From an uncultured bacterium (GTDB lineage: Bacteria > Patescibacteriota > Saccharimonadia > UBA4664), in assembly GCA_963720265.1 (NCBI GenBank), contig CAVRET010000002.1, positions 200,704 through 264,703 of the forward strand: 64,000 nucleotides of DNA, given 5' to 3'. The notes beneath the pieces were generated by a model. That model saw nothing but the letters and a program-made list of their open reading frames with translations, was not told the origin of the DNA and searched no databases. This document shows, one piece after another, positions 24,072-49,260 of this stretch (position 1 is the stretch's first letter; each line of letters opens with the position of its first letter). A program made the position numbers and the translations under genes.

Positions 24072-26216
24072 TTATTCTTTCTTTGCAGCAGCCTTCATGC
24101 TCAAATTCAGTCGGCCCTGGCCGTCAATCTCCAGCAATCTCACCTGGACCTTGTCACCCAATTTTACCACGTCGCTGACTTTCTCGACGCGCTTATCCGA
24201 AAGCTGCGAGATGTGCACAAGGCCGTCTTTGCCTGGCAAGATGTTCACAAACGCGCCAAATTCCATCAGCTTCACCACCGTACCCGTATACACGCGGCCC
24301 ACTTCCGGGTCTTCGGTCAGGCCGCGAATGATCTCAATCGCCCGTTCCGCCGCCTCGGCATCGGTTGAGCTAATCATTACAAGACCCGAATCTTCGATAT
24401 CAATCTCCACACCGGTCTCAGCTATAATCTTGTTAATCGTCTCACCGCCCTTACCGATCACGGTCGCAATCTTTTCCGGGTTAATCATGAGCTTGGAAAT
24501 GCGCGGCGCGTACGGGCTCATCTCAGCTCGCGGCTTATCAATCACTGAGAGCATTTTCGACATAATATGCGAGCGCCCCTCGTGCGCTTGCGCCAACGCC
24601 GCCTTCATAATCTCAGGCGTAATACCCTTCACCTTAATGTCCATCTGCAGCGCGGTAATGCCGTCTTCAGTCCCGGCCACCTTAAAGTCCATGTCGCCGG
24701 CAAAGTCCTCGGCACCTTGGATATCGCTCAAAATAACGTAATGCTTCGCGTCATCATGATCGGTAACGAGACCCATCGCAATACCGGCCACCGGCTTAAG
24801 GATCGGCACGCCGGCATCCATCAGGCTCAACGTCGAGCCGCACACGCTCGCCATACTCGACGAGCCGTTCTGGCTCAGCACCTCGCTCACGGTCCGAATG
24901 GTATACGGGAAGTCCTCCACCGCCGGAATCACCGGCAGCAGTGCCCGCTCAGCCAGGGCGCCGTGCCCAATCTCGCGCCGCCCAGGGCTGCGCATCGGCT
25001 TCACCTCGCCGCTCGAGTACCCCGGCGCGTTGTAGTGGTGCATGTAGCGCTTGGTGGTGTCCTCTTCCATCGTGTCGATGAGTTGCGCATAGCTGGTCGA
25101 CGCCAGTGTGGTCACGTTCAATACCTGCGTGGTGCCGCGCGTAAACAGCCCCGAGCCATGCGCTCGCGGCAACACGCCCACCTGCATGCTGAGCGGCCGA
25201 ATCTCGGTGGTTTTACGCCCATCCGGCCGGGCGCCGTCTTCCAAGATCGCGCGGCGAATCTCGCGGTCGATCACCTTACCAAACGCCACCTCAATATCAG
25301 CCAGTTCGTAGTCGTTCTCAAACTGTGCCACTGTCTCTTTCTCAAGGTTGCGCAATGCATCATGCCGCTGGTAGTGGTCCTGGTGCCGAATCGCCGGCCC
25401 CAGCTTATCCGCCAGAAAGTCGCCGATAGCGGCCATCAAATCCTCGTCAGCCTTAAACAGCTCGTACGGCTTCTCCTTAGCCCCCAAGGCCTTCACCATC
25501 TCTTCCTGCAGTTTAATGAGTGGCTGGATGCTCTTGTGCGCCAACTCAATAGCCTTAATCATTGTGGCTTCATCTACCTCATTGGCGCCGGCTTCCACCA
25601 TCATAATGGCGTCTTTCGTACCCGCCACGATCAGCTCAAGTTTCGACTCCTTCATCTGCTCTTCGGTCGGAAACGCCACCAGCTCACCGTTGATCAGGCC
25701 GATCTTCACGCCCGCCACCGGCCCCTCAAACGGAGCCCCGCTCAGCATCAGTGCCGCACTCACCGCCGTCATGGCAATGATATTGGGCGCATACTCAAGA
25801 TCCGCGCTAATCACCATCGCCACCGACTGCACATCATGCCGGTAGCCCTTAGGAAATAGCGGCCGGATCGGCCGGTCAATCAGCCTAGCACTCAAGGTCG
25901 CGTGCTCACTCGCCCGGCCTTCGCGCTTAATAAACCGCGAGCCGGAGATCTTACCCGCCGCGTAAAACCGCTCTTCGTAATCAATCAAGAGCGGGAAAAA
26001 ATCGATCCCGTCGCGCGGCTGGTTGCTCACCACAGCCGTACCAAGCACCATCGTGTCGCCGTACCGCACCGTTACCGCGCCGTCAGCCAAAAAGGCCATC
26101 CTGCCGGTCTCAATGGTCAGCTCACGACCACAAAACTCAGTGGTAAATTGCTGAGTCTTCCCCCCAAACGGGTGAATAATATCTTGTTGCATTACTGTCC
26201 TTCTCGGTTGTGGCAA
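24072..26216 (-). CDS. pnp: Polyribonucleotide nucleotidyltransferase (PNPase).
   Basis: Two RNase PH domains plus KH and S1 domains; 714 aa. Confidence 0.95.
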   Translation of the reverse strand: MPQPRRTVMQQDIIHPFGGKTQQFTTEFCGRELTIETGRMAFLADGAVTVRYGDTMVLGTAVVSNQPRDGIDFFPLLIDYEERFYAAGKISGSRFIKREGRASEHATLSARLIDRPIRPLFPKGYRHDVQSVAMVISADLEYAPNIIAMTAVSAALMLSGAPFEGPVAGVKIGLINGELVAFPTEEQMKESKLELIVAGTKDAIMMVEAGANEVDEATMIKAIELAHKSIQPLIKLQEEMVKALGAKEKPYELFKADEDLMAAIGDFLADKLGPAIRHQDHYQRHDALRNLEKETVAQFENDYELADIEVAFGKVIDREIRRAILEDGARPDGRKTTEIRPLSMQVGVLPRAHGSGLFTRGTTQVLNVTTLASTSYAQLIDTMEEDTTKRYMHHYNAPGYSSGEVKPMRSPGRREIGHGALAERALLPVIPAVEDFPYTIRTVSEVLSQNGSSSMASVCGSTLSLMDAGVPILKPVAGIAMGLVTDHDDAKHYVILSDIQGAEDFAGDMDFKVAGTEDGITALQMDIKVKGITPEIMKAALAQAHEGRSHIMSKMLSVIDKPRAEMSPYAPRISKLMINPEKIATVIGKGGETINKIIAETGVEIDIEDSGLVMISSTDAEAAERAIEIIRGLTEDPEVGRVYTGTVVKLMEFGAFVNILPGKDGLVHISQLSDKRVEKVSDVVKLGDKVQVRLLEIDGQGRLNLSMKAAAKKE

Positions 26217-26383
26217 ATACGTGCCAGGGACAAGGGATCAATAAAATTCATCCCAAAGCTCTAACACATATCACGCATCGCCACCTCAGTTGCTAAACCT
26301 GGATGTGCTTCGGGCGTATTATACTATGCCCGTTCCAAAACCCCAAGCCGCCAATACGGCTTCGAATCTTGATTCGGGCCCGG

Positions 26384-26411
26384 CCCTGGTCGCTGCCACA
26401 CGCGACCAGGG
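26384..26411 (-). terminator. 10-bp perfect hairpin (CCCTGGTCGC / GCGACCAGGG) just after the stop of the 26419..27069 gene.
   Basis: The stem-loop can be read directly. Confidence 0.4.
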
Positions 26412-26418
26412 CCGAACT

Positions 26419-27069
26419 CTACTTCGCGGCAGTGGCAGGCGCCCGCAGCGCCATGCCCAGCTGGGCGAGGGCCGACTTGATGTAGTCGACCCGCTTCCCG
26501 CGGCCAAAGGCCGGATTGTCTCGCAGCGTGCTCTCGGGAGTTGCTGCCAGATCATCCAGGGTCAGGATGCGCATGGCGTAAAGCACATCGACAACCGCTT
26601 TAAGCTCGTCGTCTCCGGGAATGTCGTCCCCGTTACGGCTCGCTCGTTGTTCGCGTAGGTCACGCAGAACGCCGACAAGCAATACAATTGGGACCTGGCC
26701 ACGATCAGACGGGGCAGCGTTTCGCCGGGTCAAGTCAGCGACCTGGATCAACACTTCCCAGCCGAGCATCCGCAGGGCTCGTTCCTGCAGCCCACGAATG
26801 TTTGCTGTTCGCGTCCTGAGCGATTCAGCCAGTTCCGATGGAGCCACCAGCATGCCACCGTTAAGGCCGAACCGCCCGATCAGCACGGTCCTGAGGGCGG
26901 GCTCTGGTAGCAGACCAAGCAGCCTGTTTAGGCCGTACAGGTCCAGGCCATAGAATTGCTGCAGGGTGTTGACGGAGATCGTGTGCTTACCCGTCCGCCC
27001 CAACTCGCTGTTGAGCGCATTGAGCAGGTCCAAAGTACAACTTCGCTGGTATCGTTGCACGGGCCACAT
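26419..27069 (-). CDS. Putative regulator that combines a sigma-70 region-4-like HTH with an RNAP alpha-subunit C-terminal-domain-like helix-hairpin-helix (start at the Met preceded by GGAGG).
   Basis: LPEPALRTVLIGRFGLNGGMLVAPSELAESLRTRTANIRGLQERALRMLG resembles sigma region 4.2. The C-terminal LTLDDLAATPESTLRDNPAFGRGKRVDYIKSALAQLG resembles the alpha-CTD. The internal ATG at 27069 has a GGAGG SD with a 5-nt spacer. Confidence 0.5.
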   Translation of the reverse strand: MWPVQRYQRSCTLDLLNALNSELGRTGKHTISVNTLQQFYGLDLYGLNRLLGLLPEPALRTVLIGRFGLNGGMLVAPSELAESLRTRTANIRGLQERALRMLGWEVLIQVADLTRRNAAPSDRGQVPIVLLVGVLRDLREQRASRNGDDIPGDDELKAVVDVLYAMRILTLDDLAATPESTLRDNPAFGRGKRVDYIKSALAQLGMALRAPATAAK

Positions 27070-27186
27070 ACTCGCCTCCAGGCGGTGCTTGATAGGTACG
27101 TTTCCGTTGCTGTCCGGGCTCATCCTACGACAAGCACGGGCAGCAATGAAACATGGTGGCCATTAATGACGAGCCGCTAAGCGAAC

Positions 27187-27453
27187 TTAGCGCCGCAAAT
27201 CGAGCTTCTTCAACACTTCCTGATACTTATCAGGATTGTGACGGCTCAAATAATCGAGCAACGATCGGCGCTTGCCCACCATCTTCAAGAGTCCGCGGCG
27301 CGAATGCTCATCTTTCTTGTGTTCCTGCAAATGCTTGGTTAGCTGCTTAATTTGCTCGGTAAAGATGCCAATCTGGACCTCCGGCGAACCGGTGTCCTTC
27401 TTGTGGCCCTGCAGGCCGGCAATAACCTTCGATTTGGTATCAGGCTTCAACAT
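27187..27453 (-). CDS. rpsO: 30S ribosomal protein S15.
   Basis: Typical S15 sequence ([14 protein letters not shown]...[23 protein letters not shown]). Confidence 0.92.
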
Positions 27454-27459
27454 AACTTG

Positions 27460-27491
27460 AGTATATTATCACTTTTCGGGCGCTCTGGCAA
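27460..27491 (-). promoter_or_regulatory. Putative rpsO promoter: TTGCCA, a 17-nt spacer, TAATAT, then the ATG 9 nt downstream, giving an almost leaderless transcript.
   Basis: The hexamers were read on the minus strand. Confidence 0.45.
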
Positions 27492-28253
27492 GGCCTAAAT
27501 CTGAAAATGCTTGGCTCCGGCCCTGAACCATCGAACAACATGTTCAATACCTCAGGGCCGGGCGCCCCTCCGAGCGCGACGACATTGTCGCGAATCGGAA
27601 GGACGCAGATGAAAAAGCGGGTAGGCCGGATCGGGCCGGCTAATTCCACGTGTAGTAGAAGACGGCATCCATGCCGTCACCTCCTTCCGGAAACCGGAAT
27701 CGATTAGCTAATGACTATCTGCTGGATGTCCCAGTGAGCACGCCGCTGCGTCCAAAGCTGGGATCAGTGGGCCGGTGCGGAGGTACCCAAGCGCCGTCAG
27801 GCAGCAGCTCGCCGGTGTCTTCGAACTGCACGATCCCGTTACATAGCAGGCTCCAACCCTGCTCGGGGTGGCTCACGACCGTGTGCGCGGCCTCCCGGTC
27901 GGGAGCACTGGCCTCCGGGCATGGTGGTGAGTGTGGGCACATAGGAAGAATCTCCTTTTGTGGGTTTGGGCAGAAATCGGATTTCTGCGATTGCCGCTGC
28001 TTGCGGAAGAACTGCCCGCTTACTTCTCAACTTACAGAGACATACCATGTCGCATTCAGCCTGCACTCAGGTTATGAGCACGTGCGAATACGAAGCGGTC
28101 GTCTCACGGCTAATATCATCTCGAGGTCGCATCCTCGCGCTAACATCAATCGTGAGCCGGCCGGGACTTAAGAAGTAAGGTACATCTCAGTTATAAACCT
28201 GTCATACCAATTTAACAATGGCTTGACAATAATATATTGTGCATCTTTTATAC

Positions 28254-28922
28254 TTAAATGTCAACGAGACAAGTTGACACCAGCTCGCGAGTAGCTTCAT
28301 CAAGCACTAATGCGTCAATCAACCGGTACTGTCCAACCTGGGCCCGTACGAGCCCGCCCAGATATGCACCAGTACCAAGTAACCGGCCCAGATCCTCGGC
28401 CAATGTGCGAATATAAGTGCCGCTCGACACGTGAGCCTCCAGCTCCACCACCGGATATTCGTAACGCACAAGCCGGTTTTCATACACCTGTACGAGCCGC
28501 GCCGGCATCGCAACGGTCTCTCCGGCCCGCACGCGCTTATACGCCTCGCGTCCATCAATTTTGATGGCCGAATACGCCGGCGGGACTTGCTCAAGTTCAC
28601 CGGTAAGTGCGGCCAGTGCAGACTCGACCTCAGGCTGCCCCGGCACTCGGTCGCTCACTAGCGTAAGCTCCCCCTCGGCATCGGCCGTCGGGCTGGTAGC
28701 GCCTAGCCGCACCTCGGCAAGATAGCGTTTATCCAACTTGGTCAGCGTCTGAGCCTGCCTACAAGCCGTGCCAAACAACAGCAGCATGAGTCCGCTCGCC
28801 AAAGGATCAAGCGTACCAGCGTGACCAATCTTGCGCACACCCGTGACGCGCCGCAGCCTCCGAATAACGTCAAACGACGTCACGCCAACCGGTTTATCGA
28901 TCAGTAGTAAACCGTTCATCAT
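28254..28922 (-). CDS. truB: tRNA pseudouridine-55 synthase TruB.
   Basis: GVLLIDKP-type start and the catalytic Asp motif GHAGTLDPLASG. Confidence 0.9.
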   Translation of the reverse strand: MMNGLLLIDKPVGVTSFDVIRRLRRVTGVRKIGHAGTLDPLASGLMLLLFGTACRQAQTLTKLDKRYLAEVRLGATSPTADAEGELTLVSDRVPGQPEVESALAALTGELEQVPPAYSAIKIDGREAYKRVRAGETVAMPARLVQVYENRLVRYEYPVVELEAHVSSGTYIRTLAEDLGRLLGTGAYLGGLVRAQVGQYRLIDALVLDEATRELVSTCLVDI

Positions 28923-28934
28923 TGTGATAATACC

Positions 28935-30077
28935 TTAAGCCGAAGAACTTTGGTCCGGCTCAACACTCGGCTGCTGGGCCAACAGCTCAGCCGCGGCTGC
29001 AAAGTCGGCCATAGCCGGCCGAGGCGTCTCCAGTTCGGACTGAGGCTGGTTCGCCGGCTGTGCCTCGTCGACCGACTCGCTTATCTCAATGTGGCCGGGG
29101 TCAATAATCGGCAGTTCCCGTAGCGCCTGGGCCTCAGGCTGAACGTTCGGCTGCGGATGGGGCTTAGGCTGTTGTGGTTGAGCTGCAGGAGCCGTAGCTA
29201 TACCTGGCCGCGCCTCAGCGCGCGGCTCCTGGCGTTGCTGTTCCGGCCGCTGGCCGCCACGATTGCGGTCGCCGCCGGGCCGCTCATTGCTGCGATCACC
29301 ACGCTCCCCTCGGTTATCACGTTCGCGGTACAGCGCCTTTACCACTGCCGGCTGCCGGCCGCCAGCTGCCATCATTTGCGCCGCCACGGTCAAGCTCTTT
29401 GAAGTCGTATGTGCAGCCGTGAAGCGGTCGGTCGCCGCCATGATCCCCATCAGCAGAATCGTTCCAATCTCGGCATCAATTAGCCCGCTTTGCAGGCTCT
29501 CGCTGGTCGCCACCAACATTTCGCATAGGCTCGAAGCATTGCCGTCAATCAAGTTAATTGCGCCGTAACCCTCATTCGAACGATGAAAGTCCAGGTTCAC
29601 CAGCGGAATCCGGTCAAACAAATCCGTATTTTGCTCATAAATGCGATCAATCCGCGCCCGCGTGGGCACGCCCAGAACAATCGCCAGATCATATTCAAAG
29701 CTCGGGGCACCGTAGTCGAACGTCACATCACTCGGCGCAAAGCTCCCTTTTGCCGGGCTAATCAAAATATTGAGCTTGCCGTCGCCCAGTTCGGTCCGCA
29801 GCTTATCCACCTCAGCCTTAGTCACATCCAGTTTGAGAATAAAGTCGCGTAGGCCACCGAGCTGACGTTCTACCGCCGCGCCCTCCAGACCCGCCACCGA
29901 AGCCGGCAGCCCGTCACTAATTACGGCACTCACACGCTTACCAAATTTGCGCAAAATTGCCGCCAATCCAACCACGGCTGCAGCCTGGTCCACACTCGGA
30001 TGCGAGCCGGTTATCAGCAGGATCGTCTCCGCCTGCCGAATCGCCTCAGACGCCTGCTGTTTCGGAGTCAATTCCAT
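28935..30077 (-). CDS. DHH-family phosphoesterase (NrnA-like) with degenerate DHH motifs and an Arg/Pro/Gln-rich C-terminal tail.
   Basis: DHH/DHHA1 architecture with DFH in place of DHH; its position next to truB is conserved in many bacteria. Confidence 0.6.
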   Translation of the reverse strand: MELTPKQQASEAIRQAETILLITGSHPSVDQAAAVVGLAAILRKFGKRVSAVISDGLPASVAGLEGAAVERQLGGLRDFILKLDVTKAEVDKLRTELGDGKLNILISPAKGSFAPSDVTFDYGAPSFEYDLAIVLGVPTRARIDRIYEQNTDLFDRIPLVNLDFHRSNEGYGAINLIDGNASSLCEMLVATSESLQSGLIDAEIGTILLMGIMAATDRFTAAHTTSKSLTVAAQMMAAGGRQPAVVKALYRERDNRGERGDRSNERPGGDRNRGGQRPEQQRQEPRAEARPGIATAPAAQPQQPKPHPQPNVQPEAQALRELPIIDPGHIEISESVDEAQPANQPQSELETPRPAMADFAAAAELLAQQPSVEPDQSSSA

Positions 30078-48138: not shown

Positions 48139-49260
48139 CTACCGCAAGTAATCGCGCAGCTTCTTTGACTCGCGGTGCTTGCGCAGCTTCGCCAGCGCTT
48201 TGGCTTCAATCTGGCGGATGCGCTCACGCGTCACGCCAAATTCCTGCCCCACCTCTTCCAAGGTGTGCGAACGGCCGTCTTCCAGCCCAAACCGCATACG
48301 CAAAATCTTTTGCTCGCGCGGGGTCAGCAGCTGTAGTACTGCATTCACGTGCTCCTTTAAGAGCTGATGTGTCGCCGCTTCCTCGGGTGTGAGCGAATCC
48401 TCATCGGCAATAAAGTCGCCCAGCAAGGAATCCTCTTCTTCGCCCACCGGCGCTTCGAGCGAGACAATGTCCTGCTTTATCTTTAAGATGTGATTGACCT
48501 TATCAACGTCCATCTCCATCTCGGCCGCAATCTCTTCCGGCAGCGGCTCGCGGCCCAATTCCTGCACCAACCTGCGTTGCGTGCGGATCAGCTTGTTAAT
48601 CGTCTCCACCATGTGCACTGGAATACGAATCGTGCGGGCTTGGTCCGCAATCGCGCGCGTAATCGCCTGCCGGATCCACCATGTTGCGTAGGTCGAAAAT
48701 TTAAAGCCTTTCGTGTAGTCAAATTTCTCCACTGCGCGCAGCAGTCCGGTGTTGCCTTCCTGAATCAGATCCAGCAAATCGAGCCCGCGACCAATGTACT
48801 TCTTGGCAATCGACACTACCAGCCGCATGTTGGCCTCGGCCATCGCGTCCTTAGCCGCCTTATCACCGTTCGCAATCCGCTTGGCCAGCGCCACTTCCTG
48901 CTCGCTGGTCAAAAGTGGAATCTTACCGATCTCACGCAAATATAGCCGCACCGAGTCGTCGGCAATGTCTTTGTTGTAATCGTCAGCCGTCGCCGCCTCG
49001 GCCTCAGCGTCATCTTCCTCTGTCGCCGCGTCCCAGATCAGCGCATCTTTCTGATCCGTAATTTCAATACCCTGCTCCAACAGCACGGCATAGAGCTCAT
49101 CAAGCTCTTCCAAATTTTCCTCAGCTTCAGGCAAGGCCCCCGCAATTTCTTGCTGGGTCACATAACCCTGCTCTTTGCCTTTCGCTAGCAAACGCTCAAT
49201 CTCGGGCGAGTATCCGCTCGAGCGATCCAGCGTTTCTTCCTCAACAGCTTTTTTCGCCAC
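48139..49260 (-). CDS. rpoD: RNA polymerase sigma factor RpoD/SigA, a short form without the region-1.1 extension.
   Basis: Regions 1.2, 2, 3 and 4; [27 protein letters not shown]. Confidence 0.95.

Follow-up and report, generated by a model that had tools for sequence, protein, structure and literature searches.

Between rpsO and pnp, in the genome of one uncultured Saccharimonadia bacterium, lies a gene whose 216-aa product appears to combine two small modules of the transcription machinery: a helix-turn-helix (HTH) like that of sigma-70 region 4, and a helix-hairpin-helix (HhH) like that of the C-terminal domain of the RNA polymerase (RNAP) alpha subunit (alpha-CTD). An earlier note, made by reading the sequence of the window (the whole 64,000-nucleotide stretch of DNA that was analysed), drew attention to this combination. 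It raises the questions of whether the gene and its two likenesses are real, how the gene came to stand where it does, and what such a protein might do in its host.

The gene and the gap that holds it

The coding sequence (26419-27069, minus strand) runs from an ATG at 27069 to a stop codon at 26419-26421 and encodes a protein, P0001, that is predicted to be all-helical and has a pI of 9.6. The frame and both peptides quoted from it in the earlier note are exact, and the GGAGG ribosome-binding site claimed for the gene is present at 27075-27079 (minus strand), 5 nt 5' of the ATG. An in-frame ATG further upstream (27123) would give an alternative reading of 234 aa; no site comparable to GGAGG was found at that ATG, and the NCBI/ENA entry, located on a 1.108-Mb contig, is the identical 216-aa form. 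The GC content at codon positions 1, 2 and 3 (0.69/0.45/0.71) follows the same pattern as that of pnp (0.60/0.40/0.71), and no other open frame was found in the gene segment. By its ribosome-binding site, codon-position GC and database record, the open reading frame (ORF) is real. The same gene has also been called on a second assembly, in a contig that is 100% identical over 6645 bp, which is the only additional contig from which it is known.

The neighbouring genes, which share the minus strand and were confirmed by Pfam, are pnp (24072-26216), rpsO (27187-27453), a DUF5999 gene (27715-27942), truB (28254-28922) and a gene for a DHH protein (28935-30077). The truB-rpsO-pnp cluster is indeed the conserved neighbourhood that had been described, but the P0001 gene itself is missing from every relative examined: it occurs neither in the loci L002-L005 nor in any of the 80 pnp loci compared. 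PNPase places the organism in the Saccharimonadales, with L002 (84% identical) as the closest relative. In blastn comparisons, homology ends at the rpsO stop codon and restarts at 26323 (L002) or 26303 (L003), and because homology to both loci breaks there, the approximately 860 bp at 26324-27184, which contain the P0001 gene, are an insertion. In L003, the conserved pnp leader starts about 12 nt from the rpsO stop codon, and truB, rpsO and pnp are tightly packed in L004 and L005. In L002 the corresponding stretch measures 674 bp and is unrelated in sequence; it has a promoter-like site of its own and a 128-aa ORF that is likewise unrelated. Whether relatives conserve the gene at this locus, a point that the earlier note had put forward for checking, is thus answered in the negative, and the insertion is lineage-specific.

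The composition of the P0001 gene is mildly atypical. Its GC content is 0.61, against 0.564 +/- 0.029 for native ORFs, and its R/(R+K) ratio is 0.82, against 0.58 +/- 0.13, both deviations being smaller than 2 SD; the coding-strand GC skew (0.02) is at the low end for minus-strand genes. A clearer trace of foreign DNA is found in the truB-rpsO gap, in the form of the DUF5999 gene (75 aa, Pfam E 1.9e-32). All 151 matches of its product in the plasmid database are actinomycete proteins (146 from Streptomyces) with 57-75% amino acid identity. In the two plasmid loci inspected, DUF5999 is part of a GntR-WhiB-DUF5999-DUF2637 module, of which the window keeps DUF5999 alone, with no remnant of WhiB or another plasmid gene. 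This gene was probably acquired by horizontal transfer from an actinomycete mobile element, which fits actinomycete hosts. Its presence shows that foreign DNA has entered the truB-rpsO-pnp stretch and, together with the shifts in GC and R/(R+K), gives the P0001 gene a foreign flavour.

Two more specific scenarios were considered and rejected. Co-transfer of the P0001 gene with DUF5999 from Streptomyces plasmids was dismissed because no relative of P0001 is present in two such loci, and a mobile-element signature was dismissed because no direct or inverted repeats flank 26324-27184 and the hairpin sequence is not repeated in the window. Both gaps of the cluster differ between the window (27454-28253 and 26324-27184) and L002 (3880-4920 and 5193-5866) and contain unrelated small ORFs; those of L002 comprise two membrane-like ORFs besides the 128-aa ORF, and more distant relatives have tight junctions. 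Both the truB-rpsO and the rpsO-pnp gap behave as hot spots at which small gene cassettes insert.

With regard to transcription, the promoter scan detected a promoter-like site 5' of rpsO (27463-27491, minus strand; TTGCCA-17-TAATAT with a TG) and none between rpsO and the P0001 gene. A hairpin with a UUCG loop lies across the rpsO stop codon (27174-27194, minus strand; z = -4.0 for 27060-27195) and is not followed by a U-run. Its 5' arm consists of the last rpsO codons and the stop codon, and its 3' arm of inserted DNA. A larger RNA structure is predicted at 27062-27161. Given the lack of an intervening promoter and of a U-run at the hairpin, read-through from rpsO is the simplest explanation, and the site upstream of rpsO probably drives a transcript that reads into the P0001 gene. 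Just past the stop codon of the latter, a hairpin at 26378-26417 (minus strand; inverted repeat I6) has perfect 13-bp arms (26381-26393 and 26402-26414) and an 8-nt loop, and the region folds at z = -5.1. It is followed by a second, terminator-like hairpin that ends in GGGGUUUU (26336-26371, minus strand), fails the T-run rule of the terminator scan and lies just upstream of the -10 box of pnp. Flanking hairpins had been proposed on both sides of the gene: the one at 26384-26411 was recovered with its perfect arms, whereas no inverted repeat of at least 11 nt was found at 27150-27175.

The TATAAT -10 box of the pnp promoter (26318-26323, minus strand) is situated at the edge of the insertion and is conserved in L002. 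The 5' leader of pnp is conserved as well (26217-26305 on the minus strand of the window, 5890-5990 in L002 and 1136-1235 in L003). It combines a long-range CCAGG...CCCTGG pairing with an inner hairpin, GGGAU...AUCCC, that varies in sequence between genomes. The leader matches no Rfam family and could serve the autoregulation of PNPase in Saccharimonadales. Another terminator-like element, a 21-nt inverted repeat with 81% complementarity and a 3-nt loop, is located at 27517-27561, between the DUF5999 ORF and the promoter-like site of rpsO.

Two domains akin to modules of RNA polymerase

As a whole, P0001 matches no Pfam family at E values up to 10, and every match to a curated model reported here is below the threshold of its family. 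Individual segments are more informative. The middle domain (aa 47-102; 26764-26931, minus strand; pI 11.8) was compared with sigma factors in several ways. A search of NCBIfam with a 70-aa fragment returned three matches, each to a sigma factor and each at region 4.2 (TIGR02997, E 0.0044; RpoS, 0.056; PRK05949, 0.082), the alignments being confined to the final ~53 positions of these models. Pfam Sigma70_r4 (cut-off 24.1 bits) matched neither the whole protein nor the fragment. When a sigma-4-unit HMM was run over the six-frame translation of the window, rpoD (48139-49260) ranked first and the P0001 ORF second (E 0.007). The domain can be aligned in register with region 4 of the RpoD of the same genome (28% identity), and R66-F67-G68-L69, E79, I91-R92 and A98-L99..L102 are kept. 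A recent duplication of this rpoD region was considered as the source and rejected, as the pairwise BLASTP comparison is insignificant and the identity is so low.

The residues that contact DNA have fared unequally. In E. coli numbering, the -35 base-contact positions R584, E585, R586 and Q589, whose roles we take from established sigma-4/DNA structures, correspond to T88, A89, N90 and G93 in P0001, whereas the phosphate-contact positions R562, R588 and K593 are retained as R66, R92 and R97. Among R584, E585, R586, R588 and Q589, R588 is the only one kept. An AlphaFold model computed with an alignment (the target with 11 fragments of RpoD region 4, an alpha-CTD protein and an RpoA) reached a pLDDT of 64-79 over aa 41-110 and 59 overall. 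All of the top 50 Foldseek matches of this model in the PDB are sigma region 4 (TM up to 0.88, rmsd 1.4-2.1 Å), a result that is partly circular owing to the RpoD rows. The likeness to sigma region 4.2 that had been noticed at about residues 50-100 is above chance, although the curated matches are sub-threshold and Pfam Sigma70_r4 is silent, and the assignment of the domain to the sigma-4 type is very likely correct.

The C-terminal domain (aa 156-209; 26443-26604, minus strand; pI 9.7 for aa 156-216) shows a similar relationship to alpha-CTD. When 15 Pfam-confirmed alpha-CTD units and the E. coli alpha-CTD were combined into an HMM, it found a single domain at aa 160-212 with 33.9 bits; among 5000 shuffles of the query, the highest score was 10. 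The best-scoring HMMs were built from proteins that the P0001 query itself had picked out, and when the score is corrected for the size of the library that supplied the units, the significance is still ~2e-3. Over 51 residues, the domain shares 29-43% identity with the single units, and L163, I168, L174, E179, K198, L201 and L208 are invariant. RNA_pol_A_CTD (PF03118) is the sole Pfam family matched by the C-terminal fragment (11.9 bits, E 0.19; cut-off 23.8); two NCBIfam rpoA models match the fragment at their C-terminal ends (E 0.018 and 0.023); and a PDB sequence search with the whole protein gave a sole match, the CTD of an RpoA chain (5vi8_T, E 0.2, aa 167-213). Three independent curated resources (PDB, Pfam and NCBIfam) agree, and we regard the alpha-CTD-type assignment as well supported. 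The alpha-CTD-like domain of the earlier note is thus likewise above chance, though the curated matches are sub-threshold.

R265 is the key UP-element residue of alpha-CTD. In P0001, the equivalents of R265 and N268 (E. coli numbering) are A158 and D161, and G296 is kept as G189, flanked by basic residues. The "265 determinant" for UP elements (R265, N268, G296 and K298) is thus incomplete, with R265 and N268 replaced.

A more prosaic reading is that P0001 is an ordinary HTH regulator with a generic HhH tail, and that the likenesses reflect shared HTH and HhH motifs instead of descent. Besides the sub-threshold scores of all curated matches, it is favoured by TIGR03491 (a RecB-like nuclease HhH region in NCBIfam), which scores as well as rpoA on the C-terminal piece, and by MAFFT, which aligns sigma-4 fragments onto alpha-CTD fragments, so that no single two-domain alignment was obtained. 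However, no other HTH or HhH family of Pfam matches the protein; the NCBIfam matches of the HTH piece are without exception sigma factors at region 4.2, with the RFGL signature; and the score of the alpha-CTD-unit HMM extends across the whole 52-residue domain. We therefore regard this reading as very improbable.

The remaining parts of P0001 could not be assigned to any family. The N-terminal segment (aa 1-46; 26932-27069, minus strand) is helical and was modelled with a pLDDT <50; its sole Pfam match, to Borrelia_orfA (E 0.054), is weak and was taken as noise. The linker (aa 103-155; 26605-26763, minus strand) is acidic (pI 4.7) and helical, with AlphaFold helices at 88-117 and 128-143 of low confidence. 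For the entire protein, the single-sequence AlphaFold model had a pLDDT of 46 and gave nothing significant in Foldseek, alpha-subunit chains being among the top matches; the alignment-based model reached a pLDDT of 63-73 over aa 151-190. The parts that the earlier note had called absent are absent by Pfam at E values up to 10: Sigma70_r2 has no match (regions 2-3 are absent), and the N-terminal dimerisation and assembly domain of alpha (RNA_pol_A_bac/RNA_pol_L) has none. GerE, the family of LuxR/GerE regulators, is without a match at the same E values. Since the defining core-binding parts are absent, P0001 is not a sigma factor, nor is it an alpha subunit.

Relatives across sequence collections

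A word-indexed search of 5.8 billion protein clusters returned only P0001 itself. A phmmer search of 1.84 billion representatives yielded three proteins besides the query and no full-length relative: P0002 (E 2.5e-14), with 11 tandem Pfam-confirmed alpha-CTD units; P0003 (E 7e-6), with three such units; and P0004 (E 1.7e-5), with seven Pfam Sigma70_r4 units. These E values are inflated by the summing of repeats, single units or domains scoring 6-17 bits. Profile searches that combined the target with sigma-4 rows (A3) retrieved ordinary RpoD only, and those with alpha-CTD rows (A2) retrieved two alpha-CTD proteins, P0124 and P0125; none of the proteins found has both domains. P0001 was unmatched in PHROGs, tblastn against phage and plasmid records gave nothing at E values up to 1, and scans of metagenome and viral contigs gave pattern matches and no relative. 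No such fusion of sigma-4 and alpha-CTD was found in literature searches. The architecture is hence as unusual as had been suspected, a second example being absent from every collection searched, and the combination of the two domains in one small protein looks new. The case for a new architecture rests on one sequence from one genome.

The metagenomic proteins with tandem units are odd architectures in themselves. P0002 (1031 aa), P0003 (253 aa), P0004 (647 aa) and P0124 (222 aa, one alpha-CTD unit) are singletons in ENA assemblies; a signal-peptide-like N-terminal segment precedes the 11 alpha-CTD units in P0002, and the gene for P0003 (locus L084, 6001-6762) adjoins clpP-clpX-lon and a Sel1-repeat gene.

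This isolation bears on the reading that the gene is a functionless passenger, that is, a recently acquired, decaying or chimeric ORF, unexpressed or unselected, in a gap that tolerates insertions. P0001 is a singleton across all collections searched, its gap is filled with unrelated DNA in the closest relative and is empty in others, functional positions are degraded in both parent domains, and structure confidence is low. On the other hand, a 216-codon frame has stayed intact behind a strong ribosome-binding site at ideal spacing, the GC pattern of the codon positions is clean, hydrophobic cores are retained in both domains, and structured 3' hairpins insulate the gene from the pnp promoter. 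A passenger of this kind appears rather unlikely.

Possible roles and comparison with known systems

The reading we prefer, which we consider to have about an even chance of being right, is that of a lineage-specific or foreign orphan gene that encodes a free-standing DNA-binding regulator. The fold homologies behind it were computed at modest significance, DNA binding and regulation are what we purely infer from them, and the lack of homologues speaks against this reading. According to this proposal, a segment of ~860 bp was inserted into one genome of the Saccharimonadales (candidate phyla radiation), with the rpsO stop codon on one side and the pnp promoter on the other, and its product would be a basic, all-helical protein of 216 aa composed of the N-terminal segment, the sigma-4 HTH, the acidic linker and the alpha-CTD HhH. 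Transcription would probably proceed by read-through from the rpsO promoter and end at the hairpins before the pnp promoter. Most likely, the protein would regulate transcription on its own by binding DNA: the HTH would recognise a separate operator instead of the -35 hexamer, and the HhH domain would add contacts to the backbone or minor groove, or to a protein. DNA binding is compatible with the basic charge of both domains beside an acidic linker and with the retention of the phosphate-contact arginines R66, R92 and R97, and a specificity unlike that of either parent is suggested by the replacement of the -35 contacts and of R265 and N268.

The earlier note had instead suggested an RNAP-associated regulator or adaptor, an idea taken up here as that of an adaptor or decoy; its description of both modules as RNAP-contacting and DNA-binding is an inference from homology. 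The sigma-4 part would then bind the beta-flap tip or partners of sigma-4, and the alpha-CTD part would compete for UP elements or activators, so that the polymerase would be re-programmed or inhibited, as it is by some phage and plasmid factors. Both domains seem to descend from modules that contact partners of RNAP, the loss of base-reading residues with retention of the fold core would be in keeping with a mimic that binds proteins, the gene has the look of an acquired one, and small proteins consisting of sigma-4 only are common in phages. Nevertheless, no relative was found in phage, viral and plasmid collections, and the basic charge of both domains equally fits DNA binding; an adaptor or decoy therefore seems distinctly unlikely. 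A bolder version would make P0001 the first single polypeptide to join sigma-region-4 and alpha-CTD modules and act in trans on RNAP or promoters, gained from mobile DNA by an episymbiotic member of the Saccharimonadales. It must be considered improbable, and the same doubt applies to its possible mode of action, for example that the protein occupies the UP-proximal/-35 region or the beta-flap and thereby mimics the natural pair of sigma-4 and alpha-CTD.

If P0001 is functional, it would imply that the two promoter-proximal recognition modules of RNAP can recombine into a small stand-alone factor. A symbiont whose reduced genome encodes few transcription factors would then possess a regulator, or a mimic of the polymerase, of a new kind. 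The gene is found in one genome only and shows no sign of being conserved, so its value is that of a curiosity and a candidate for a quick biochemical test. The locus also indicates that small cassettes of unrelated genes enter the rpsO-pnp and truB-rpsO gaps in this lineage, and one such cassette clearly comes from actinomycete mobile elements.

Among known systems, region 4 of group-1 sigma-70 factors (4.1-4.2; for example, T. aquaticus sigma-A, PDB 1KU7) shares with P0001 the RFGL motif and the hydrophobic core of the HTH, and identity with solved sigma-4 domains is 22-30%. Unlike sigma-70 factors, P0001 is without regions 1-3, its -35 contacts are replaced, and 114 further residues follow the domain, which in those factors is the end of the protein. 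Small stand-alone Sigma70_r4 proteins of phages, as well as P0004, resemble P0001 in having a sigma-4 HTH without regions 2-3; however, they are without an alpha-CTD-like domain, and no phage sequence matches P0001 significantly. With the CTD of RNAP alpha, aa 156-209 of P0001 have in common four helices and the GxxK/R hairpin (FGRGKR), whereas P0001 is without the N-terminal domain of alpha, scores under the Pfam cut-off, carries Ala and Asp in place of R265 and N268, and has a one-residue insertion in the second hairpin. The tandem alpha-CTD-repeat proteins (P0002, P0003 and P0124) are the nearest sequences to its C-terminal domain, at 29-43% identity per unit, but they are without a sigma-4 part, K-rich, of low GC and from unrelated bacteria, and their kinship with P0001 is at the level of the domain only.
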